Assembly: GCA_951406725.2 (NCBI GenBank)
Contig: OX597825.1
Span: forward strand, 60,264,001-60,328,000
Length of the DNA: 64,000 nt
Direction of reading: 5' to 3'
DNA from: Octopus vulgaris
Lineage: Eukaryota
Notes under the pieces: generated by a model
The model's database searches: none
Seen by the model: the letters and a program-made list of their open reading frames with translations, nothing else
Told to the model about the DNA's origin: nothing
Made by a program: the position numbers and the translations under genes
In this document: one piece after another, positions 4,994-55,914 of the stretch
Position numbering within the stretch: position 1 is the first letter of the stretch
Layout: each line of letters opens with the position of its first letter

Positions 4994-5574
4994 TTCATTT
5001 ACTTCGAAATTTGCTATAAAATTGTGGTTTTTGGCCCTGTTGGATGCTATTTATAGCATGTAAAATTACCTTTTAAAGGGTAATTTTCTATTTTGAAATA
5101 CGAGTATGTTGTCTATTGACTTTTTATACATGCTAGGCCACTGGCGGTGATATTTATAACGAGTATTCGCCACCCTATATATATATGTACCTTATGAATA
5201 TGTTCTTAGCATTCTCGAAGTTTCAGCTCGGTATTGTATCTATTGCTGACTGTAAATACGCCTGCGCGCGATATTTGGAAAATTATAGCATATAATGATG
5301 GGACACGTGTTATCTTGTCTCTGAATTATAAGTTAGTTGTTTAGGCCGGTTACTGACGAGGATTCGCCTGGTAGATAATATGGTCTTGCAAAATTATCTA
5401 TCAAAAATCTGAAACCGTTATATAACAAGGTAAAGGTTTTTATTTTTCATTTACTTCGAAATTTGCTATAAAATTATGGTTTTTGGCCGTGTTGGCTGCT
5501 ATTTCTAGCATGTAAAATTACCTGTTAAAAGTAATTTTCTAGTTTGAAATACGAATATGTTGTCTATTGACTTT
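4994..5574 (+). repeat. ~130-bp direct repeat with ~452-bp period (tandem pLTR/retrozyme-like)
   Basis: 4994-5123 matches 5446-5574. An HHR motif lies between the copies. The sequence is related to 14238-14423. Confidence 0.8.
5349..5426 (+). ncRNA. Type I hammerhead ribozyme motif, stem III decayed
   Basis: gtta-CTGACGA (5353-5359); stem II ggatt/aatct extended by tggtagataat/attatctatca; GAAAC at 5411; stem I gtta/taac. Confidence 0.6.
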
Positions 5575-6354
5575 AATTCCATCGACAGAACAGTTTTACT
5601 GGTACTTGGTCCGTAATTTGTGGTACATGATCCATGATTCGAACATTTGGTTGGTAATTTTTCCATTTCTTTTGTAAAAAATTTTTCCCTTTTTTCTTTC
5701 TTATTTTTTGTAGGTTTCCCCACTAGGAGCAAAACAACGCAATACAAGTCTACCTACGGCAGATAACAAATTTATGTTTAACAAAAGAAATTAACAAACA
5801 CAACAGTTAGCAGTAGCACCATCCTTCAAAAACAAGAACTCAGCAAAGTGAGGAGAACGAATTAATTCTTTATTGCCCACAAGGGGCTAAACATAGAGAG
5901 GACGGTACAAGGACAGACAGAGACATAAAATATAAAAGCGATGGATGAAATGAAATGTACAAAAGGAAGATGAACGCTATAGCTAGAGTCCCACAATAAG
6001 CAATCACGTTATTACTGTTCATTTTCTGTTCATTAACTACTAAATTATAGATGCTTTCGATCTAGTTTGGATTCTTTGCCACCAAATTTGAATTCTTTGC
6101 TATCAAATTTGAATTTTTTAATTAGTGCTCAAACCTTGAAAAAAAAAGAGAGTTAAACTACATCAGCCGTAAGGGAATATCTTAACTATCTCGTCCAGTA
6201 GAGCCCATCAATTGATATCTGAAAAGTTCGATCAAATAACTCATGAACCCTGCGATAGCTTCTACCGAAAGACGCTCCCTTACGTCGACAGTCTGAACAA
6301 GGGGAGATAATAAACGAATGATTATTTTTCTATTATCTCCCCATGTATATATAT

Positions 6355-6584
6355 ATGTGTGTGTGTGTGTATGTGTGTGTATGTTTGTGTGTATGTCTTT
6401 GTCTCCCCAACATCGCTTGACAACCTTTGCAGGTGTGTTTACGTCCCCGCAACTTAGCGGTTCGTCAAAAGAACCGATAGAATAAGTACTAGACTTACAA
6501 AGAATAAGTCCTGGGGTCGATCTGCTCGACTAAAAGCGGCGCTCGAGCATGGCCACAGTCAAATGACTGAAACAAGTAAAAGAG
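6355..6584 (+). mobile_element. 3' half of SINE family B
   Basis: catcgcttgacaacc...cttagcggttcg...gaataagtactag...atgactgaaacaagtaaaagag. Confidence 0.85.
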
Positions 6585-6765
6585 TATATGCATATAAATA
6601 TTTACGCATAAATGTCTGTGCCTATTTTTTCAATTTGTACAAATAACACGTTAAAAAATTAATAGTTACCAAGGTAGTAAAAATTCACATAAGTGCCAAG
6701 GATGTTACTGCCTTCTTATAAAAGTAGAAATTCCAGTGTTTAGTGAAATGTTTTGATTATCATGG

Positions 6766-7008: not shown

Positions 7009-7140
7009 ATTTATTATATAGAAGGAGCTTCTACAGGACTAGAACTGTTTCATTCAAGAGAAATCTTCAGGAAGCTTCCTGAAGATTTCTCTTGAATGAA
7101 ACAGTTCTAGTCCTGTAGAAGCTCCTTCTATATAATAAAT
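7009..7140. repeat. Perfect 132-bp palindrome with no spacer, followed by (TA)n
   Basis: The two 66-bp arms are exact reverse complements centred on aag|ctt at 7074/7075. Confidence 0.97.
7073..7123 (+). ncRNA. Type I hammerhead ribozyme, apparently intact core (mirrored on the minus strand)
   Basis: Stem I agcttc/gaagct; CTGAAGA at 7079-7085; stem II t-ttc-tctt-gaa-t; GAA then stem III ACAG/CTGT; GUA cleavage after 7117. Confidence 0.75.
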
Positions 7141-13378: not shown

Positions 13379-13823
13379 AATTCATGGAAAATTCTTAACC
13401 GGCAAAAGATTTCTAAAATGTTTACATCTATGTGAATCATCGTTAATTTAGTAACTAAGTGCTCTTTACTATCGTACAGTTGTAGTTAAGAGTAGTTGGA
13501 GGTCCAGCACACGAGTTTAATGAAGGGGAAAGAATTCGGGAGACTACCGTTCTACGCGTTCTTGCCTCGAACGTTATTTTATTTCTCTAACACTAACTTG
13601 CTCATCTACAGTTGCTCCTGATTTCCGTGTTTCTATCTAATACACGGTAGGATAATAAAATTTCAGAATACTGACCTGCAATGTTACGACTTTTATGTCA
13701 AATACAAAATACAGTATCTGGGGAAACATAGAAACGCATGATAGGTTAGATCTAATATCGATTACACACACATATACACACACTCACGTACAATTTTATA
13801 TATATACATATATATATATATAT

Positions 13824-14423
13824 CATATAAAATCAGTGTACAGTTAAAAACAAAAGAGGTGACCCTAACAGAACAACGTACATACTAGAAGGACAGTCAA
13901 AGTTCAAACCACAGTTAAGAGGAATTTTGAAGGAAATGAAAAATAAAAACATTTACCATATTTTGTTCCCGGATCTAGGTTTCGAACTTTAATTAACAAA
14001 TAAATTTAGTAATTTTGAATGAAGTCGACATAATTATTTGCTGCCGATTAAAAATGCGCTTGTGCGGTTGATTTGAAAAATCATAATATATAAAGATAAG
14101 ACGTGCTATTTTGTCTCATAATTATATGTTAATTTTTGGCGCACCCGCTGATGAGAACTTCACCTAGCAAATTGTTTTATTTGCTAATTAAAGTTCGAAA
14201 TCTTGGTCCGGGAAGAAACTATGGTAAATGTCTATATTTTTCATTCCCTTCGAAATTGCTCTTAACCGAGGTTTGGATTTTGACTGTTCCTTCTAGCATA
14301 TAAGACGTCCTGTGAGGGTCACCTATTTTGTGTACACTAATTTTATATGGAAATATGTTGTCTATTTATTATTTTATACAAGCTGGGCCACTGGTAGAAA
14401 AATATCTATAATTTTCCTACCCT
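13824..14423 (+). mobile_element. Non-autonomous PLE-like element with inverted pLTR arms between TA-rich tracts
   Basis: Diverged ~180-bp inverted repeat at 13824-14004 / 14176-14349. The right arm overlaps an HHR; the left arm carries its antisense 3' half. Confidence 0.75.
14144..14212 (+). ncRNA. Type I hammerhead ribozyme
   Basis: Stem I cccg/cggg; CTGATGA at 14148-14154; stem II gaactt/aagttc with an inner tagcaaat/atttgcta hairpin; GAAA at 14197-14200; weak stem III; GUC cleavage after 14208. Confidence 0.8.
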
Positions 14424-15576
14424 GTATATATTTCTTAATACACACACTCACACACACATATATATATATATATATTCATTGTTATACATGTGTATGTAAA
14501 CTTGCACATTCACACACACTCAAATATATGTATCACCTATAATCCTTTTCATTGTAAATATATATATGCAGGCGTAAATACACGTATATAAATATATATA
14601 AAAAGTAATTCTCGTTTTCTTTATCGTTGTTACAGCATGTGAAAATTGTTCCTTTTCTTCGAATATTGTGAGAAAATGTCACTTACAATCATGACGATTT
14701 AATTTTTGAAGGGATTTATAAAACAAAAAGGAACTAAATCTATATAGATGTAAATAAATAAATGGAATTGTGTAAATAAAGAAAGGGGTCTCTAAATTAA
14801 GTACTTTTTCGTTGAACTAGTTCAATCGTGAAGATAACTTTTGACCAGGAAATTTCTTTTATTTGAGCCTAAACTCGACTTAAACTTTGTTTACAAGGAG
14901 CAGTTATATATTTGATAATGTGAAAATGATTTGAAAGTTAAGACAAATATGTCAGAAACTAAACTATGCCTATTATAAACGAAAAGGAGAAGAATAAAAA
15001 AATACGTATTGTATTTTTGTTAAATAATAAAGAAAAATAAAGAGATTATATAATGGCTTTATATCCTAAATTTAAAATTGTTTTAATGCTTATCTAGCAA
15101 TAAATAACCGACAGAAGCATTGTTTATTACACAGTCTACAGTTTATATAACCTTAAAAATAGAAACGAATACATGAAAACGTAGATTCAAATGGTTTTTG
15201 AACAAATAAAATGTTGAAATTTATTCTGTTTATTGATTAAAGTAAGGAGAGAATTGCTGCCCGTTTAGCTAAAAAAAGCGATACTATATGGTCAATATTT
15301 ATATATTTAAACAAAATGTTTCTATATGATTAATTTTAACAGAGTGTTCCTTGTCTTAAATATTTATCTTTTTCTAAGTAACACGAAACTATGAAGTTAG
15401 ATGAATAATATTGGCTTTCAGATTTATCGAAATATAGAGAAGAATATTTTTTTCCGGAATATTTTTCCCGCTATGTGAATATTGATAGGTGGCTCTGTAT
15501 GTATGTGTGTTCGTGATGCATGTATATATATATGCACATACATATATATGCATATAATTATATATATAAAATAGCA

Positions 15577-17410: not shown

Positions 17411-17575
17411 GGCGCAGGAGTGGCTGTGTAGTAAGTAGATTGCTTACCAAGCACATGGTTCCGGGCTCAGTCCCACTGCGTGGCACCTTAGCATAGTGTC
17501 TTCTACAATAGCCTCGGGCCGACCAAAGCCGCCTTGTGAGTGGATTTGTTAGACAGAAACTGAAAGAAGCCTGTC

Positions 17576-17614
<39 letters not shown>

Positions 17615-17830
17615 CGTGTGTATATGTTTGTGTGTCTGTGTTTGTCCCCCGAACATCGCTTGACCAGCGATGATGGTGTGTTTACGTCTCTGTAATCTAG
17701 CGGTTCGGCAAAAGAGACCGATAGAATAAGTACTACGCTTATAAAAATAAGTCCTGGGGTCTATTTGCTCGACTAAAGGTGGTGCTCCTGCATGACCACA
17801 GTCAAATGTCTGAAACAAGTAAATGAATAG
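17411..17830 (+). mobile_element. Full-length SINE family B
   Basis: ggcgcaggagtggctgtgtagtaagtag head, internal (TA)n, gaaacaagtaaa tail. Confidence 0.9.
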
Positions 17831-18368
17831 TCTTATGTAGAATAACAGAAAAGAGGTGTCAAGATGTCAAGGTCTCTAGAAGAACGGAGAAAATGATAAA
17901 GATTGTAAATAAATAAATAACTAATAAGTCGAAAAGATTATTCCAGAATAGTTGGAGCATTTTGTATTTGGCGTAACGAATGAAAAGGACAAAGGACGAT
18001 AATGACTGAAAATGCAGGAAACACACCAGTTAATGATGTAGATTAATAAATATACATAAGTTAGAGAATATCGGTACGCCTATCAAACTGGGATTTTTGA
18101 GAGCATGCGGATTGATCAAAAAGGTATTCTAAAAATTCGGCTGTTTGGAGCGTTCTATGAGAAACTAGAATTATCAAGAACTCGACTGTCAGTTAAACGC
18201 ATTTGAAATATGGTGAGTACACTATATATGAAAGCGTTGATTTTGTTAAAATACTATAACAAAAACATGAAAACTGGACTGTTTTAACTTTATTCGACTT
18301 ATGTATATGCATATATACATATATACACGCATGAATAAGTATGTATATACATATGTATGTATACATAT

Positions 18369-18594
18369 GCGAGCTGGCTGAAACGTTAGCACGCCGGGCG
18401 AAATGTGTAGCCGTATTTCGTCTGCCGTTACGTTCTGAGTTCAAATTCCGTCGAGGTCGATTTGGCCTTTTATCCTTTCGGGGTCGATAAATTAAGTACC
18501 AGTTACGCACTGAGATCGATGTAATCGACTTAATCCGTTTGTCTGTCCTTGTTTGTCCTCTCTGTGTTTAGCCCCTTGTGGGTAGTAAAGAAAT
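18369..18594 (+). mobile_element. SINE family A, tail type A
   Basis: gcgagctggctgaaacgttagcacgccgggcg...gagttcaaattcc...ggggtcgataaattaagtaccag...gccccttgtgggtagtaaagaaat. Confidence 0.9.
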
Positions 18595-19672
18595 ATATAT
18601 TTATGCATATATATATATTTATATATTCATACATGCGTATACATACAACCATATAATTGCACATTTAGCCAGCTCTATACGCCTTACAGATTCATGGGAA
18701 CTAAGAGGCATTTTTAAATTTTAAGTTATATGGAGCGGAGTCAAACTGTATCCAGAAAGGTCCATCGGTGTGAAAGACCAATTATAATTTCAAATGACGT
18801 AACACCGTCAGTTTGCAGCTAATATATATTGAATTTTAAACTTCTATAATTAGATATTGTTATTAATATTCAGTAAGGGTTCTTTGAAATTTAGCAAACA
18901 AATTGCACCGTATACGCATTACTGACGCACTATATACCAATTTAAAAAAGCAAAACGTGACAAATAGTTCATACCGTTTTGCTAATGCGTTGAGAAGAAA
19001 ATAATATATATACAGAAAAAAAATACAGATCACAACTTTAGTAATTGAAGAATATAAACTTTTAGAATATTCCACTGAATTGCATGCAATTTATCTGCAG
19101 TGCTTTTAAAACAGTTTATTATTCTGATTGATTGGAGCAAATTCTTTAAAAAGACTGACATTTTATTCATTTAAATGAGATATTTGCAACGTGTGTTTAA
19201 TTTACTAGCATCAATTATTTTCTCGAATCAGCAATTAGTTTGATAAGAACGTCTTGAGCCGAAACTACGCAAAACGAATGATTATATATACATATATATA
19301 TATATATACATTTATAGAGAGATAGATAAAAATATATATGAGTGTATATGTAATTGTTGGTGTGCGTGTGTTTGTCTCTGTACACGCACATACAAACAGA
19401 TACAAGCACACTTACATATACATGTACATATAAATGTATATATACATGTATATAGATAGATATGTTGCATATGTACACACGCGCGCGTGTATGTCGCAGT
19501 TTTTGGCACATGACCTTATTACTTTAGAAAAAGGCGCCTGATAAAACGATTTACACGATGGCCAGACTCTTCATGCATTTAGGTTTTCTTCATCATTTCT
19601 TATCAAAACGAAACGACAGGTAGAAATAAAAATTAAATGCAAAAGAAAGAGAAATGATTTCGCCGAATCAGC

Positions 19673-20384: not shown

Positions 20385-20826
20385 TCGTTTAATTGTTTCA
20401 GTTATTAGATTGCGGTCATGCAGGGGCAACGCCTTGAAGAATTTTAAGTCGAATTAATCGACCCCAATAACTTTCTGGTACTTAATCTATCGATCGCTTA
20501 TGTCGAACCGCTAAGTTGCGAGTATGTAAACATACCAATACCGCTTATCAAGTCGTCGTGGGGGGATATACATAGAAACAAAGACACAAACACAAAAACA
20601 CGCACACCCACAAACACGTATACACACAAAAACGCCCACACACAAACACACACGTACGCACATATATATAAGATGGGGCTTCTTTCAGTTTCCATCTACC
20701 AAATTCACTAACATGGCTTTGGTCGACCCGAGGTTATAGTAGGACACAGTGTGGTTTTCACGAAGTGGGATTGAACCCGAATCCATGTTGATGGGAAGCA
20801 AGTTTCTCACCACACCGCCACGTCTG
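20385..20826 (-). mobile_element. Decayed SINE family B
   Basis: Reverse-complement match to family B (ttctttcagtttccatctaccaaattcac; gaaccgctaagtt). Confidence 0.75.
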
Positions 20827-27896: not shown

Positions 27897-28550
<654 letters not shown>

Positions 28551-32617: not shown

Positions 32618-33395
32618 GTGGCGAGCTGGCAGGAACGTTAGCACGCTAGTGGAAATGCGTTAGCGGTATTTCGTCTGTCTTTATGTTCTGAGTTCAAATT
32701 CTGCCGAGCTTGACTATGCCTTTCGGGATCGATAAATTAACTACTGGTGCCGATCTTCTCCAAAATTTCGGGCCTTGTGCCTAGGGTAGAAAAGAATATC
32801 AATGCACATGGTGGCATTTCTTCCATCTCTACGTCCTGAGTTCAAATTCCGCCGAGGTTGACATTACATTTCATCGTTTCAGGGTCAATAATATTCTTTT
32901 CTAATCTAGACAAAATGCCTGTAATTTTTGAGGGGAGGAGCAGTCGATTAGATCGACCCCAGTACGCTACTAGTACTTAATTTAATAATACCGAAAGGAT
33001 GAAAGGTGAATTCGACTTTGGTGGAATTTGAACTCAGAACATAAAGACAGACGAAATACCGCTAAGCTTTTCGCCTGCGTGCTAATGTTTCTTATTTCTT
33101 TACTGCCCACATGGGGCTACACACAGAGGGGACAAACAAGGTCAGACAAATGGATTAAGTCGACTACATCGACCTCAGTGCGTAACTGGTACTTAATTTA
33201 TCGACCCCGACAGGATGAAAGGCAAAGTCAACCTCGACGGAATTTGAACTCAGAACGTAACCGCAGACGAAATACGGCTACGCATTTCGCCCGGCGTGCT
33301 AAAGCTTTTGCCAGCTCGCCGCCTTCGGGGTCAATAATCGACTCATCGTATATCCTGAAACTGCTGGCCTTGTGCCTGAATTTGAAATTAATATC
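32618..33395. mobile_element. Nested SINE family A cluster: plus copy, plus copy interrupted by a minus-strand dimer (32893-33323)
   Basis: TSD ttc(a/g)gggtcaataat at 32878-32892 and 33324-33338 flanks the inverted dimer. Confidence 0.8.
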
Positions 33396-42738: not shown

Positions 42739-42773
42739 CTGATGAAGGAGCTAGAATTCCTGAAATAAGCATA
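42739..42773 (+). ncRNA. Degenerate hammerhead-like core
   Basis: CTGATGA-aggag-ctagaa-ttcct-GAAA. Stems I and III are not convincing. Confidence 0.35.
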
Positions 42774-42906
42774 TATACCCATTACCTATTTCGTCCATCT
42801 ACAATTACGTTATTTTCTTTTGACATGCAGATACGAGGTTGTAACAAATCAGTGCTGGCTATAATTTCTATAGGAAATCTGTGGATATAAGCTTAAACAG
42901 TGATCA

Positions 42907-43683
42907 AGCTAGCAGAAACGTTAGCACGCCGGGCGAAATACTTAGCTGTATTTCGTCTGCCGCTACGTTCTAAAATCAAATTCCGCCGAGGTCAACTTTG
43001 CCTTTCATCCTTTCGGGGTCGATAAATTAAGTAACAGTTACGCACTGGAGTCGATACAATCGACTGAATCCTTCTGTCTGTCCTTGTTTATCCCCTCTGT
43101 GTTTAGCCCCTTGTGGGTAGTAGACAAATAGGTATTTCGTCTGCCGCTACGTTCTGAGTTCGAATTCCGCCGAGGTCGACTTTGCCTTTCATCCTTTTGG
43201 GGTCGATTAAATAAGTACCTGTTACGCACTGGAGTCGATATAATTGACTTAATCCGTTTGTCTGTCCTCGTTTGTCCTCTCTGTGTTTAGCCCCTTGTAG
43301 TTAGTAAAGAAATAGGTATTTCGTCTGCCGTTACGTTCTAAGTTCAAATTCCGCTGAGGTCAACTTTTTCTTTAATCCTTTCGGTATCGATAAATTAAGT
43401 ACCAGTTACGCACTTGTGTCGATATAATCGACTTAATCCGTTTGTTTGTCCTTGTTTGCTACCTCTGTGTTTAGCCCCTTTTGGGTAGTAAAGAAATAGA
43501 TATTGCCTCTGCTGCTACGTTCTAAGTTCAAATTCCGCCGAGGTCAAATTTGCCTTACATCCTTTCGGGGTCGATAAATTAAGTAACAGTTACGGACTGG
43601 GGTCGACGTAATCGACTCAATCCGTTTGTCTGTCCTTGTTTGTCCCCTCTGTGTGTAGCCCCTTGTGGGCAGTAAAGAAATAA
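42907..43683 (+). mobile_element. SINE family A concatemer: one head plus 4 x 184-bp body units
   Basis: Units start at 42949, 43133, 43317 and 43501 (tatttcgtctgccg...gtagtaaagaaatag). Confidence 0.92.
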
Positions 43684-45902
43684 GAAAGATACTTCAGGAA
43701 TTAAAACTTGAATCAATCTGGTATCATTCTTCAGATCCACATCACTAAATCGTGTAATACTTTTCAGAAACGAGCAATTGCCATATTCACTCACCGCTAA
43801 TACAGAGGTTATATTAAATCTCATGAAAAATAAGCCAATACTTTAATAGAAATTAGTATTGCTTTTTGAAATATTCCACCCACACAAAATTGAATAATCC
43901 AATTGCGATTTTTGTTTAAAAAATTCGAAATACTGATTAGAATTTTTTTTAATGTCACACTATAACCAATAATCTTTGAAATATTTGTCGTTATTATTGC
44001 TTGACATTGACGCCATAAAAAACGCGTTCTATATTTTATATCCTTATTAAAAAGAGGTCAAAAACAGCTTAATGCCATCTGAGATGAAAGATTAAAGACG
44101 GTGACGTTGATGATGACAATTTCGAGAACAAATGACAAAACAATAACAAGAAAATACTTTTAATTGTTTTTAATTTGTCAGAAAGTTAGAAGTGTTTGAG
44201 TAAAGTGTGTGTAGTTATTTTAATAGACACGAGTATTTAACTGGTAGTTATTGGTATTAATGGTATATATTGGTATTTATTGGTATTTAACTGGTATTCA
44301 TTTACACCGAACAGAGAATATCTCCTTGATCATTCCTACAAGTAGAAACAGAAAACTAAGTACACTTTAAAGTATATCATACCATTTTACGATGTTATTC
44401 CGAAGTAACACCTTACGATCACATACCGAGTGTTCTGAGAGGTCATTGGCAATGTCAGAGAACATAGCTACAACAAGCATATGCAGAAGAAATACATGAA
44501 ATTTAGGAGCTTAAGTGGTTAGTGATATGCACTTCCTTTACAAAACCTAATTTTTTTCTCTACTGCTAAACAACACTGAAATAACTCGGTGGTAAATGCG
44601 TTGCAAGGTTTCAGAAAAAATATCTTCCTTGCATCACCGTGGGAGCCAATAAAAAATGGTCAATTAAATAAATGGTCATTGTTTTGCTTGAAATAGCAAC
44701 AGCATTTTAAGTTTAGCAACCGCTAGAGGCATTGCGGATCTTATTAAAAGGAACCAAAGATGCATATTTGTTCTGGAGATACTTCGTTAAGATATTGGCA
44801 GATGGGTAAGTAGGGAATGTTATTACTGGAACAAGAATACAACAAATTCCATGCAATTCCAATCGGTAATGCGAAATGGATATTTGTTTTTTACCTGATA
44901 GTTAATAATATTCAAGGGTTCATAGCCAGGAAAGCAAAAGATACTTTCGTATAGAGAAATACCATAAGCTTTCTCTTATTCTAAATTAAAAGGTAACGCA
45001 AGAAAGTCATCAAAACGATCTCTTCTAGGTTTGTTACTAAAAACAGTTTAACTGTAATACTTTTGAAAGAAGTCCATCACTTGATAGAACAACTGAATTA
45101 GTTTCCAATCTCTCTTTCAGTGCCACATTGCTTACATACAGGCAAAGCCAAACCAAACTTCTACATTACTAAAATTTGGTGGTTATTTAAAACAATGTGA
45201 AGTAGTGAGGACATATATGCCTAGTACATGTTTTATTAAAATTGCAAAAGTTAGACAGTCAGAGAAAAATGAAACTATTTCTTACACAGTTTAAAGTAGG
45301 TTGAAACAAAAGGACATAAACCAAAATTATATGATAAATCTAAACAATCTTGCAAGTTAGGGGAAAGGGTATAAAAAGAAAGATGAAGATGCATGAATAA
45401 AAGACAGAAACAAAATGGGTGAAAATATAAAATAGAAAGAGTGGAGGGAACGGGGCCAAGTAATAGATAGTAAGGAAGAAATAGACAAATATACCCACCA
45501 CATTAACTGAGAAAATCATTGAAGCTAGAAAAGGCATTTATGTGTGTGTGTGTGTGTGTGTAAATAATAATTATATGCATAGAGCTTATAAACGATTATC
45601 GTGTACTGCCTTAAGAAAAGAACCTAATACTGATCTATATAAGACATCTTCGGAAAAAAAAGTGTGTGTAGATACGCATGGTAGTATGATAGTACCCACG
45701 GCGATGGCTTATAAGCCTTATGCATATAATCATATGTATATATATATATATAAGTAGTTGAATGAATTATCTTAGTATGGATAATTCGGTTAACCGATAC
45801 CTGGGTAGCAAATTCACATCAGAAAAACACGGTTGAAGCTACATGCCAAGGGCAGAGATCACGTGCTTTCGTGTGGAAATTTGTGTGTTTTTTTAATACA
45901 AA

Positions 45903-46036
45903 TAAATGAAAGAATGGAGTTGAACGACGATTTAACAAAATTCCTTTATTCTCGAGATATGTTTCGAAGGTTCGAAACATATGTCGAGAATAAAGGAATT
46001 TTGTTAAATCGTCGTTCAACTCCATTCTTTCATTTA
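45903..46036. repeat. Fold-back palindrome (66-bp arms, 2-nt loop, 1 mismatch) containing a hammerhead 3' half
   Basis: Arms 45903-45968 / 45971-46036; cGAAACATATGTC at 45973-45985; followed by (TA)n. Confidence 0.93.
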
Positions 46037-46723
46037 ATTATATATATATATATATAGTATATCCAAAAAACGAAGAACAAACGCAAAAAAAAAACACGAT
46101 AATCTGAGGACGTGGTACTTGTAAAGTATTAGCAAACAATCAGGGAAGGAAATGCGCTTGTGCGATGCATATATTTGTAGGCTCAGATTTAAGCATTTTC
46201 CATGGTACAGTTTATAATAATGGCTACATATTTTAAACAGGAAACTCTCGTTGAAATAAAATATATACAACATGCAGATGAAAGTGAGTTCAGGTATATT
46301 TTGTACCAATGTTACCCGATGCATTTTTTACCATCTTACTATAAACCTTCAATAAGCAATAATGAACATTGCACCATCAGCTATATTCTGTTGACAATTG
46401 TTTCATTACCACAATCGCCTCTAGAGAGATTTGAAAAATAAACACGCGCATACACATACATTGGCATCCACACCTATATATTTGTGTGTATGTGTGTGTG
46501 TGTGCGCGCGAGAGAGAACGATAAATAGATTGAGTGAGAAAGATAGTGAGGGTGAGAGTGAGAGGAGAGACGTTCTACTTGTGTATATCTCAGATATATA
46601 CAGAGTGGGCCGAAACTCAAGCACGAAATCAGTACAATATACTCCGGAATTGTGAAAGACATGCCTCACGTTTTGCAAAATTGAATAAAATAAAGAAATT
46701 AATGATAACTATACACGTATGTT

Positions 46724-53584: not shown

Positions 53585-55338
53585 GTGTGTACATATGTAT
53601 GCATGTTTGGTATGTATGTATGTATAATGTATGGATACAAGTCCATTTATATTCCTAGTAATATGTATTTATGTGTGGATATGCTACTCCAGTGCTCTTT
53701 TGTGGAGCTTTATTATAGTTTGCTTTATTATCTTACTACAATTGACGCTTTCAAGTTCGCCATATTTGATAAATGCATTATAGAATGTTACAGTTATTAA
53801 AATTATAATTCACTCAGATTGCTAGTCATGAATTTCAAAAGAAAGTACATGATTTAGCATATCTTTGAAATATATATATGTTGTTTTTTTTTACACAAAA
53901 TTCTATTCATGTGTTGATCTTTATAAAAAAAGTTCAGTTTCATGAAGTACTAATAACCAAACGTTTGTCAGGAACATTGAACTTTTAAAATAAAACAATA
54001 GATTCTTCTTTCAATAGTTTAACATTCATAAGTTTAATTCATTTACTATCATGGTAACTGAATTAATAATTAATTAAGATTTCTGGAAAAAAAATCATAA
54101 TATCGATTGTATGGGAGAAAAGCAGCACAGCATAAAATTAATATATCGTTTGAAAACATGGAAAACAAAACTAAAAAGATTCAAATATGGTTGAAATTAA
54201 CAACATTACGAATGATCTATAGAAATTTGTGTTCCACTTCATGGATTTGAATCAATTCCCAATCATAAATTTAACATAATGCTTTCTTCTCTTCTGCTGC
54301 ATAAATTTTGGTAAAAAGCCCAAAAGTAAAGAAAGACATTAAAATTTGATTATATCTAGTTATGTGATGAGACTGAAAAAGATATGGCTGAAGAGTTGAA
54401 ACTTCATGAATTTATTTAAAAGAATATAAATATTTTAAAGAAAACAAAACAGACAAAATGTGGATGAGCGAGAAAAGGAGATGATATAAAAGGAATGGAT
54501 GGGGGCGGAGGGGAGAAGTGGTGTATAGATTAGATGAAAGTGATAATTCTGATTGCAACTGAAGTAATAAAATGACACGCGTAATTCTTTTTAATGTTTA
54601 TGGCATTGGCTCTGTAATCAAACTGACGCTCTTCTATTAATCCTAGAATATTTATTAGGGAATTTAAAGATGTCTTTTGAATTTCAAGTAAGTTACTCAC
54701 ATAAATGTTTTATTTATTAAGAAGACAACGAATAAATTCAAATAGAGACGGCATATATCTAAATAGTTTAAAATTCCACATTCCTAATAATGATCTTGAA
54801 TTTCATGTTTTGGTTTTGAGATTTTTTTTCTTTTGATTTCTATGATGTTATGCCAGAAAGATTATGAATTGGCACGAAGATACAGTAAATTTTAGAAATA
54901 TCTATGTCGCATTTTTTCAAAGAAATATATTTGCAGAGGTGCCTACGCTAAGCAAAGAAATACCATTTTACATATTAAATTAATTCAACACTGTATGTAC
55001 TTTAAGTATAAATACAGATGTATATACATATATACATTTACATTTATGCATACATATGTGTGTGTGTGTGCATATGTGTATGCGTGCAGGTATGTGTCTA
55101 GGTATGTGTATCTCATAATCCGTTCTGTTTGCTAGACCAAAAACTAAGTTTACGAAATGCATGCATGCACACACCCACACGCCCACACACACACATATCC
55201 ACCCAAACACATATATATGCGAGTGTGTTTGTGTGTTGTATGTATTTATGTATGTATGTATGTATGTATGTATGTATGTATTCTTCATCTTACCGCTCTC
55301 GATGTGACAGTATAACTGAGATTCAATGGCTATAGGTG

Positions 55339-55606
55339 TTTCTTTTCCTTTTTTCAGTCATGTCGTATTTAGAGTTTATTCCCAAGTTAGACCCGCCTGA
55401 ACTAATTTATACTATAAATGTATGCCACGCATTATGAGCTCTAATTTCTCTCGGGTATGTGATGCTCTGTTTTTCTTTTCCTTTTTTCAGTCATGTCGTA
55501 TTTAGAGTTTATTCCCAAGTTAGACCCGCCTGAACTAATTTATACTATAAATGTATGCCACGCATTATGAGCTCTAATTTCTCTCGGGTACGTGATGCTC
55601 TGTTTT
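55339..55606. repeat. Recent 133-bp tandem duplication
   Basis: cagtcatgtcg... at 55355 and 55488; the copies differ by one substitution. Confidence 0.95.
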
Positions 55607-55914
55607 TCAAAAGATGAAGTGAAATTTGAAAGAGAGTTGCTAGCACTTTCTGACGAACTCGTTTCCGACTTAGATACTAGCCTATTTAGTATAACATTCA
55701 TTTTAATAATATTCATTTTAATAATGATGATTTCTGAATTAGATACAAGGTTAGTATATTGAGGCAGAGTATTAGTCAATGGCAGCAATCCAATGACTTT
55801 GCAGGTACTATATCTTATTGCTCTCGGATGTGGGTAACCACTCCTTGTTGAAATTTGTAGAAAAAACGCAAACTTCCAAAATGATTCAATGAAATCGGCA
55901 CTATAGTGCATGCG

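Follow-up and report, generated by a model that had tools for sequence, protein, structure and literature searches.

Penelope-like elements and the retrozymes proposed to derive from them are the described systems closest to the repeat analyzed here. Penelope insertions carry an inverted, 5′-truncated copy at the 5′ end, form partial tandems, are extended on one side, and target microsatellites (PMC8557442, PMC3846280, PMC8969392), and the tails described for them are 30–40 bp long (Arkhipova et al. 2013, PMC3846280; Craig et al. 2021, PMC8557442). For Penelope elements, hammerheads have already been described both as pairs on opposite strands and as solitary truncated motifs, and 235 hammerhead loci have been counted in a squid genome. 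According to published work, in which Lunse et al. are cited, hammerheads with stems III as short as that of the present repeat act as dimers and cut weakly. A purified Penelope protein has been reported to nick AT-rich DNA, to initiate reverse transcription within the RNA at a point downstream of the hammerhead, and to use mainly uncut RNA (PMC11167929). Animal non-LTR retrozymes, in turn, have been proposed to originate from Penelope pLTRs (PMC7229834; preprint 10.64898/2026.07.22.740005).

The window, by which we mean the whole 64,000-nucleotide stretch of Octopus vulgaris DNA that was analyzed, contains an element with two inverted arms and a type I hammerhead motif; it belongs to a multi-copy family in which head-to-tail monomer joints occur and inverted junctions recur. 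Our best explanation, to which we assign a probability of roughly 0.68, is that the element is a mutated copy of an ORF-less hammerhead repeat of ~440 nt, likely a non-autonomous Penelope-like derivative of the retrozyme or pLTR type, that it was likely inserted in trans with a head-to-head inverted partial copy, and that its ribozyme is predicted not to cut. The element and its flanks comprise the following parts:

13774..13823, no strand: left flank, a compound microsatellite of (CA)n and (TA)n (sequence).
13824..14004, minus strand: left arm, an inverted, 5′-truncated second copy, head-to-head with the forward copy (BLAST, alignment).
13968..13983, minus strand: left-arm copy of the 3′ half of the ribozyme (GAAA to stem I), with G16.2 changed to A and no CUGAUGA half.
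14005..14440, plus strand: forward copy of the ORF-less repeat unit, 436 nt (two contigs of sequencing run X5; paralogue homology).
14350..14440, plus strand: 91-nt 3′ extension, found in the forward copy only and tail-like, matching the paralogue up to 5188.
14438..14486, no strand: right flank, likewise a compound microsatellite of (CA)n and (TA)n (sequence).

The hammerhead lies within the forward copy and is built as follows:

14144..14212, plus strand: type I hammerhead motif, predicted to cut after 14208 (stem-aware search, fold z).
14144–47/14209–12, plus strand: stem I, 4 bp (sequence).
14148..14154, plus strand: core CUGAUGA, CTGATGA in the DNA (sequence, stem-aware search).
14155..14196, plus strand: helix II arm, with a 6-bp stem (14155–60/14191–96), a 4 × 4 internal loop, and an 8-bp distal hairpin (14165–72/14179–86).
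14197..14208, plus strand: GAAA (14197–14200), a short stem III with a 2-nt loop, and the GUC ending at 14208.

CUGANGA, GAAA, and NUH thus follow one another in order, helices I and II flank them, and the motif ends in helix I, as expected of a type I hammerhead. The core, the 4-bp stem I, the 6-bp stem II, and the extra hairpin are present as the initial annotation had described them. The core letters alone occurred at chance level (14 matches in the window against a shuffle mean of 16.2). In contrast, a stem-aware search, in which the core had to be accompanied by at least 4, at least 4, and at least 2 pairs in helices I, II, and III, returned 14144–14212 as its single match in the 64-kb window, and 200 dinucleotide shuffles yielded no match. 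When the isolated 77-nt motif was folded, its fold z was −2.98 and the helix II arm had pair probabilities of 0.86–1.00. No Rfam hammerhead family matched the window at the gathering score or among the 22 matches up to an E value of 10, and the miss at 14144–14212 is likely due to the long insert in helix II; matches to Rfam miRNA families tracked the inverted repeat and microsatellites and were set aside.

Aligning the arms against each other showed that the left arm (13824–14004) is the counterpart of 14176–14349 plus 8 extra nt. BLAST gave 81.9% identity over 182 columns (E = 3.7e-47), and the full alignment gave 149 matches, 24 substitutions in 173 positions (14 transitions and 10 transversions), and 9 gap columns. 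Both arm motifs quoted in the initial annotation were found in the sequence. The left arm breaks off at the position matching 14176, in the loop of the distal hairpin; of the 6-bp stem II it carries the complete 3′ strand and nothing of the 5′ strand, and it lacks the CUGAUGA half. The proposal that this arm is truncated inside stem II is therefore right for the extended helix II arm only; the 6-bp stem II is passed completely on the 3′ side. On the right, the element had been thought to stop at 14423, and both the paralogue match and the family contigs extend it to ~14440. Compared for a target-site duplication, the two flanks have 14 identical nt in common, at 13774 and 14438, both low-complexity, and no empty insertion site was seen in the run contigs.

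Inverted arms of 181 nt lying in (TA)n DNA could belong to a MITE or fold-back DNA element as its terminal inverted repeats, or could have arisen in assembly, with the hammerhead being incidental in either case, and none of the contig pieces listed from the sequencing runs bridges the inversion junction 14004/14005. Conversely, the arms are not co-terminal, leaving a 91-nt overhang, and the inner junctions differ among family copies, neither of which fits the fixed terminal inverted repeats of such elements. The 24 differences in 173 positions are unlike a fold-back artefact, run X2 contains both 13500–13760 and 14290–14433 with 0 differences, and the hammerhead helices covary in the paralogue described below. 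This explanation is hardly credible and has already been largely refuted. A different sequence in the window, 45896–46043, is a near-perfect 148-nt palindrome with AT-rich flanks and is possibly another fold-back insertion.

To define the repeat unit we relied on a second copy within the window and on contigs from other sequencing runs. Self-comparison revealed the following paralogue, which belongs to a sister subfamily and is absent from the initial annotation:

4994..5574, plus strand: partial head-to-tail tandem with a period of 452, of the kind that forms a pLTR (self-comparison).
~5348–5426, plus strand: decayed hammerhead of the paralogue, lacking a proper cut site (self-comparison, fold).

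The forward unit is homologous to the paralogue segments 5205–5574 and 4994–5188, the two subfamilies being about 70% alike. Upstream of the ribozyme, 105 columns aligned at 71% likeness with a score of 88, where the null reached at most 38; downstream, as far as ~14431, the likeness was 66% and the score 117, with a null maximum of 45. The match across the ribozyme itself was insignificant (score 22 against a null maximum of 29). Stem II of this single paralogue differs by two both-sided changes, A-U to G-C and C-G to U-A, and its distal hairpin is an 11-bp helix made of other letters with the architecture kept. Because stem II changed on both sides and the distal hairpin was retained where the sequence match had become insignificant, this one comparison suggests past selection on the hammerhead structure. 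The lost GUH of the paralogue probably reflects an 11-nt deletion relative to the form in one record of run X18.

In run X5, two contigs lead from 14421 and 14401 on to 14005 across 22 and 34 letters, and these bridging letters read as the 3′ end of the unit plus 4–5 nt; the strand of the two joints was assigned from their agreement with the junction of the paralogue. Since these contigs join the end of the unit to its start and the paralogue is a tandem with a period of 452, an ORF-less monomer of ~440 nt exists, of which the forward copy (14005–14440) represents 436 nt, ~4 nt short of exactly one monomer. In all three head-to-tail joints, which come from two subfamilies, the 3′ end falls within about 4–5 nt of 14005. 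The first 47 nt of the forward copy, 14005–14051, were assigned to it from the X5 contigs, because pairwise alignment was insignificant for both candidate sources (344, 543, and 85 of 2000 shuffles were as good).

We then surveyed four of the 24 listed sequencing runs at 80% likeness, namely three DNA runs from three organisms and one whose RNA label is a guess (X18). The DNA runs yielded 1330, 1284, and 944 family records, and the last yielded 90, among which short family pieces were present. In run X2, depth was 434–74,302 over the bins covering 13808–14423 against 17.8 in the left flank, values that we read only as showing a multi-copy sequence and not as a copy number. The left flank (13500–13760) and the right end of the element (14290–14433) were both present in X2 with 0 differences; neither X5 nor X6 covered the left flank, which is not evidence of its absence there. 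Joints that start in the left arm and enter the forward unit, at positions that vary, were found in 2 of 15 listed rows with the same strand stated and in a further 9 of 12 listed rows in which the strand was read from the letters, at depths of about 16–76 in X2 and X5; we read these as inverted junctions of other family copies. Head-to-tail joints accounted for 2 of the 12 listed rows, both from X5. One joint, 13959 to 14221, is the same inverted junction in all three organisms and could be one old shared insertion.

Many junctions cluster just 3′ of the cut site (at the equivalents of 14213–14247), and we did not accept this clustering as evidence of cleavage, since subfamily divergence breaks the alignments there and depth is highest there. 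A 25-nt stretch of the unit had 0 matches in the metagenome and viral scans, and the 8 metagenome or viral loci that matched the core pattern were unrelated, having at most 13–14-nt seeds in common with the unit. Among such loci, six metagenome or viral contigs (L002 and L004–L008) carry one identical CUGAUGA–stem–hairpin–GAAA motif, unrelated to the element, that is possibly a microbial hammerhead.

With a head-to-head, truncated inverted copy of its own and 11 joints at variable places listed in other copies, the locus behaves like a Penelope insertion. The initial annotation had called it an inverted partial pLTR typical of such insertions. The architecture and the recurrence of junctions at varied places bear out the Penelope part of that description; the attribution to the pLTR of an autonomous element finds no support in the ORF-less monomer and the coding content of the window. 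No reverse transcriptase or GIY-YIG domain was found among the 147 filtered frames of the window (at least 62 aa, low-complexity frames dropped) or in the two frames within the repeat unit, so an ORF for a telomerase-like reverse transcriptase with GIY-YIG, which defines an autonomous Penelope-like element, was found neither at the locus nor among these window frames. Three of the 147 frames had any Pfam match, and all three were unrelated and below the curated cut-off.

The repeat could nevertheless derive from an autonomous Penelope-like element as its terminal repeat (pLTR end), a 5′-truncated stump with an inverted arm being all that is left; the head-to-tail joints would then be rare partial tandems or deletions and would not mark an ORF-less family of its own. 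Penelope hammerheads are mostly single motifs of truncated elements, with some opposite-strand pairs 100–700 bp apart, and the monomer joint was seen in just 2 of the contigs listed, both from one run, and in 1 paralogue of the window. A further hint comes from the sequence 3′ of the hammerhead, where a weak GT..AG resembling that of an intron and an open frame of 48 codons occur:

14224..14296, plus strand: weak candidate for a 73-nt spliceosomal intron, whose GT...AG is also retained by the left arm and by the paralogue.

In this copy only, an ATG stands before this sequence and the 48-codon frame after it. At the threshold of the element itself, 16 of 149 donors had such an acceptor, and at that of the paralogue 28 of 149 did, so the intron is only a weak lead. 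Stops interrupt the 48-codon frame in both copies of the paralogue, which speaks against a stump, and frame 14297–14440 gave 1 homologue candidate, none with an E value up to 1, and only below-cut-off Pfam matches, a lack of homologues that counts weakly in the same direction. The position of the three joints, within about 4–5 nt of 14005 in two subfamilies, fits a defined monomer. We regard a stump of an autonomous element as unlikely and favor the ORF-less, non-autonomous repeat.

For this non-autonomous repeat, we propose the following course of insertion. The template would have been RNA from tandem units. As the scissile bond 14208/14209 is crossed by both copies, this RNA would have been left uncut or have been re-ligated at the hammerhead; the crossing fits the use of mainly uncut RNA by the Penelope protein (PMC11167929). 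A Penelope-type protein may have nicked the microsatellite DNA, which is AT-rich, and, starting internally near 14440, may have copied roughly one monomer. A second priming event or a template switch would then have produced the inverted copy running from 14349 back to 14176, and both arms would have decayed neutrally afterward. The reverse transcriptase and endonuclease would have been supplied in trans by a Penelope-like element; as no autonomous partner was found in the window frames or the unit, it is the architecture that points to these enzymes.

The length of the forward copy also raises the question of whether the template was circular. Were the element a genuine non-LTR retrozyme whose dimers cleave themselves and whose monomers then close into RNA circles, the insertion would represent one round of reverse transcription of the circle, halted ~4 nt before its own start. 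The forward copy does cover 436 of ~440 nt, is circularly permuted, and has the ribozyme intact in mid-copy; its size lies within the 150–450 bp range, its GC content is 0.32, and Penelope elements have been proposed as mobilizers of retrozymes. However, the circular folds predicted for the decayed copies had z values of −1.67 and −1.53 (40 shuffles each) and were not markedly stable, whereas described retrozyme circles are highly self-paired, and no array with two complete hammerheads is present within the window. The agreement in length comes from a single locus, where coincidence, or a transcription start near 14005 from the TA-rich upstream monomer end, would also fit, and uncut linear template is the dominant substrate of the Penelope protein in vitro. 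We judge a true retrozyme of this kind very unlikely. A combined version, in which the family travels as a 440-nt circular RNA and a Penelope enzyme copied one round via the re-ligated hammerhead, stalled ~4 nt short, and flipped into the inverted arm, seems quite improbable to us; if true, such a circular-RNA fossil would be direct genomic evidence of Penelope enzymes copying ribozyme-made circles. The reading that we retain is a trans-mobilized ORF-less repeat, with its RNA, uncut or re-ligated, as the probable template.

In stem III, the two arms have each departed from ACC/GGT by a single private change, C15.2 to U in the right arm and G16.2 to A in the left. The family majority is C at 14201 (26, 30, and 16 contigs in the three DNA runs) and G at the equivalent of 14206, read at 13974 (21, 22, and 19 contigs), and hence the ACC/GGT stem III is the family state. 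An ACC-AT-GGT palindrome occurred in 4 of the 24 loose-end rows listed and ACC-TT-GGT in 1 listed joint row; single-letter insertions yielding 3-nt stem III loops were found in 3 contigs each in X2, and none of the listed rows covers the two central stem III positions. The ancestral palindromic stem III proposed in the initial annotation is thereby supported as regards the restored ACC/GGT stem and the existence of a palindromic form in the family; its exact TA center is not, since AT, TT, and 3-nt loops occur. A consensus lacking the palindromic stem III or the core, named there as fatal to the proposal, is in principle not what we found, since that palindromic family form exists. A short palindromic helix III is present at family level and in neither arm of this copy, whose self-duplexes have predicted energies of −1.1 and −4.4 kcal/mol; the stem III octamer of this copy, at −1.1, compares with about −11 kcal/mol for the palindromic forms.

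Cleavage in the family would be the work of hammerhead dimers formed through the short palindromic stem III. In this copy the ribozyme is predicted to be inactive, because it has no tandem partner, its stem III is weakened, and the inverted arm ties it up in read-through RNA. In equilibrium folds predicted for the plus-strand transcript of the whole element, stems I and II had a probability of 0.00 and 8 of 9 sampled arm–arm pairs reached at least 0.99; when the forward unit was folded alone, the pair probabilities of stems I and II were 0.00 and <0.1. Calling the ribozyme well formed was consequently an overstatement, given the damage to stem III and the predicted sequestration by the inverted arm.

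Using the family as reference, the 24 arm differences divide into 7 changed in the left arm only, 7 in the right arm only, 1 in both, and 9 on which the listed rows give no information, and at one further site both arms agree against the family. The 17 within-arm rows used for this tally were those in which the other letter stood at about half or more of the X2 depth; four minority rows, at 13965–13968, were excluded. Such symmetric decay fits mutation after insertion. The window also contains, at 7009–7140, a perfect 132-nt palindrome of unrelated sequence that has hammerhead-like core letters and failed the stem-aware search. Its 66-nt arms show 0 differences, which would have a probability of 5e-5 at the rate of the element arms. 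That the element is older than this palindrome, as had been claimed, is plausible from 24/173 against 0/66. Spacerless palindromes can be homogenized or arise as assembly artefacts, and since 7009–7140 is spacerless, belongs to another family, and is open to homogenization or misassembly, the relative age is likely but not secure.

Several other repeats were noted in the window. A second multi-copy repeat, 14488–14800, lies directly to the right of the element and was found in three organisms with 10–17 differences per 313 nt. A family of tandem units of ~184 nt, 86% alike, occupies 42907–43690, 18368–18602, 32620–33325, and 759–974, and just upstream of the first of these, at 42739–42795, is a core-like motif without proper stems. 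Self-comparison also revealed a SINE-like family (1045–1437, 6343–6586, 17414–17829, and 20385–20821), which we take to resemble octopus SINEs, and young local duplications at 27897–28429 and 55336–55608, 98% alike over 179 and 140 nt. The SINE-like repeats and the microsatellites would suit an octopod host.

How the locus stands among known systems can now be stated. A description of this repeat family was not found in the retrozyme and Penelope literature in the portions available, and supplements or repeat libraries may already contain it. As a single decayed copy the locus is an ordinary example of a known arrangement and matters little; the family is of modest value. With the endonuclease-bearing Penelope-like elements (Penelope/Poseidon, Neptune, Nematis, and Hydra; PMC3846280, PMC8557442), it has in common the head-to-head, inverted, truncated 5′ copy, the partial tandem of the paralogue, the one-sided extension, the microsatellite context, and a hammerhead inside the repeat. 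It differs from them in that no ORF was found, the extension is 91 nt rather than 30–40, and no palindrome stands at the inversion junction. Assignment to Naiad is unlikely because Naiads are described as lacking canonical hammerheads. The published descriptions of Penelope-type hammerheads (Cervera and De la Peña 2014, PMC4209133; review PMC6765202) match the present motif in the 4-bp helix I, the long helix II, the G10.1–C11.1 pair, and the short stem III with a 2-nt loop favoring dimers.

With the animal non-LTR retrozymes (Cervera and De la Peña 2020, PMC7229834; Li et al. 2026, 10.64898/2026.07.22.740005), the family has in common an ORF-less monomer of 440–452 nt, low GC, one type I hammerhead per unit, head-to-tail joints, and a proposed Penelope origin. 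In contrast to those retrozymes, it shows no array of two complete hammerheads in the window, its predicted circular fold is not markedly stable, and it has a Penelope-type inverted arm, the word "inverted" occurring 0 times in the main text of PMC7229834. The family thus unites, in many copies, retrozyme traits (the ORF-less monomer and head-to-tail joints) with Penelope marks (inverted arms and varied junctions), and the ends of its copies bear on two questions, namely whether Penelope enzymes mobilize retrozymes and whether their template is a circle or hammerhead-cut RNA.
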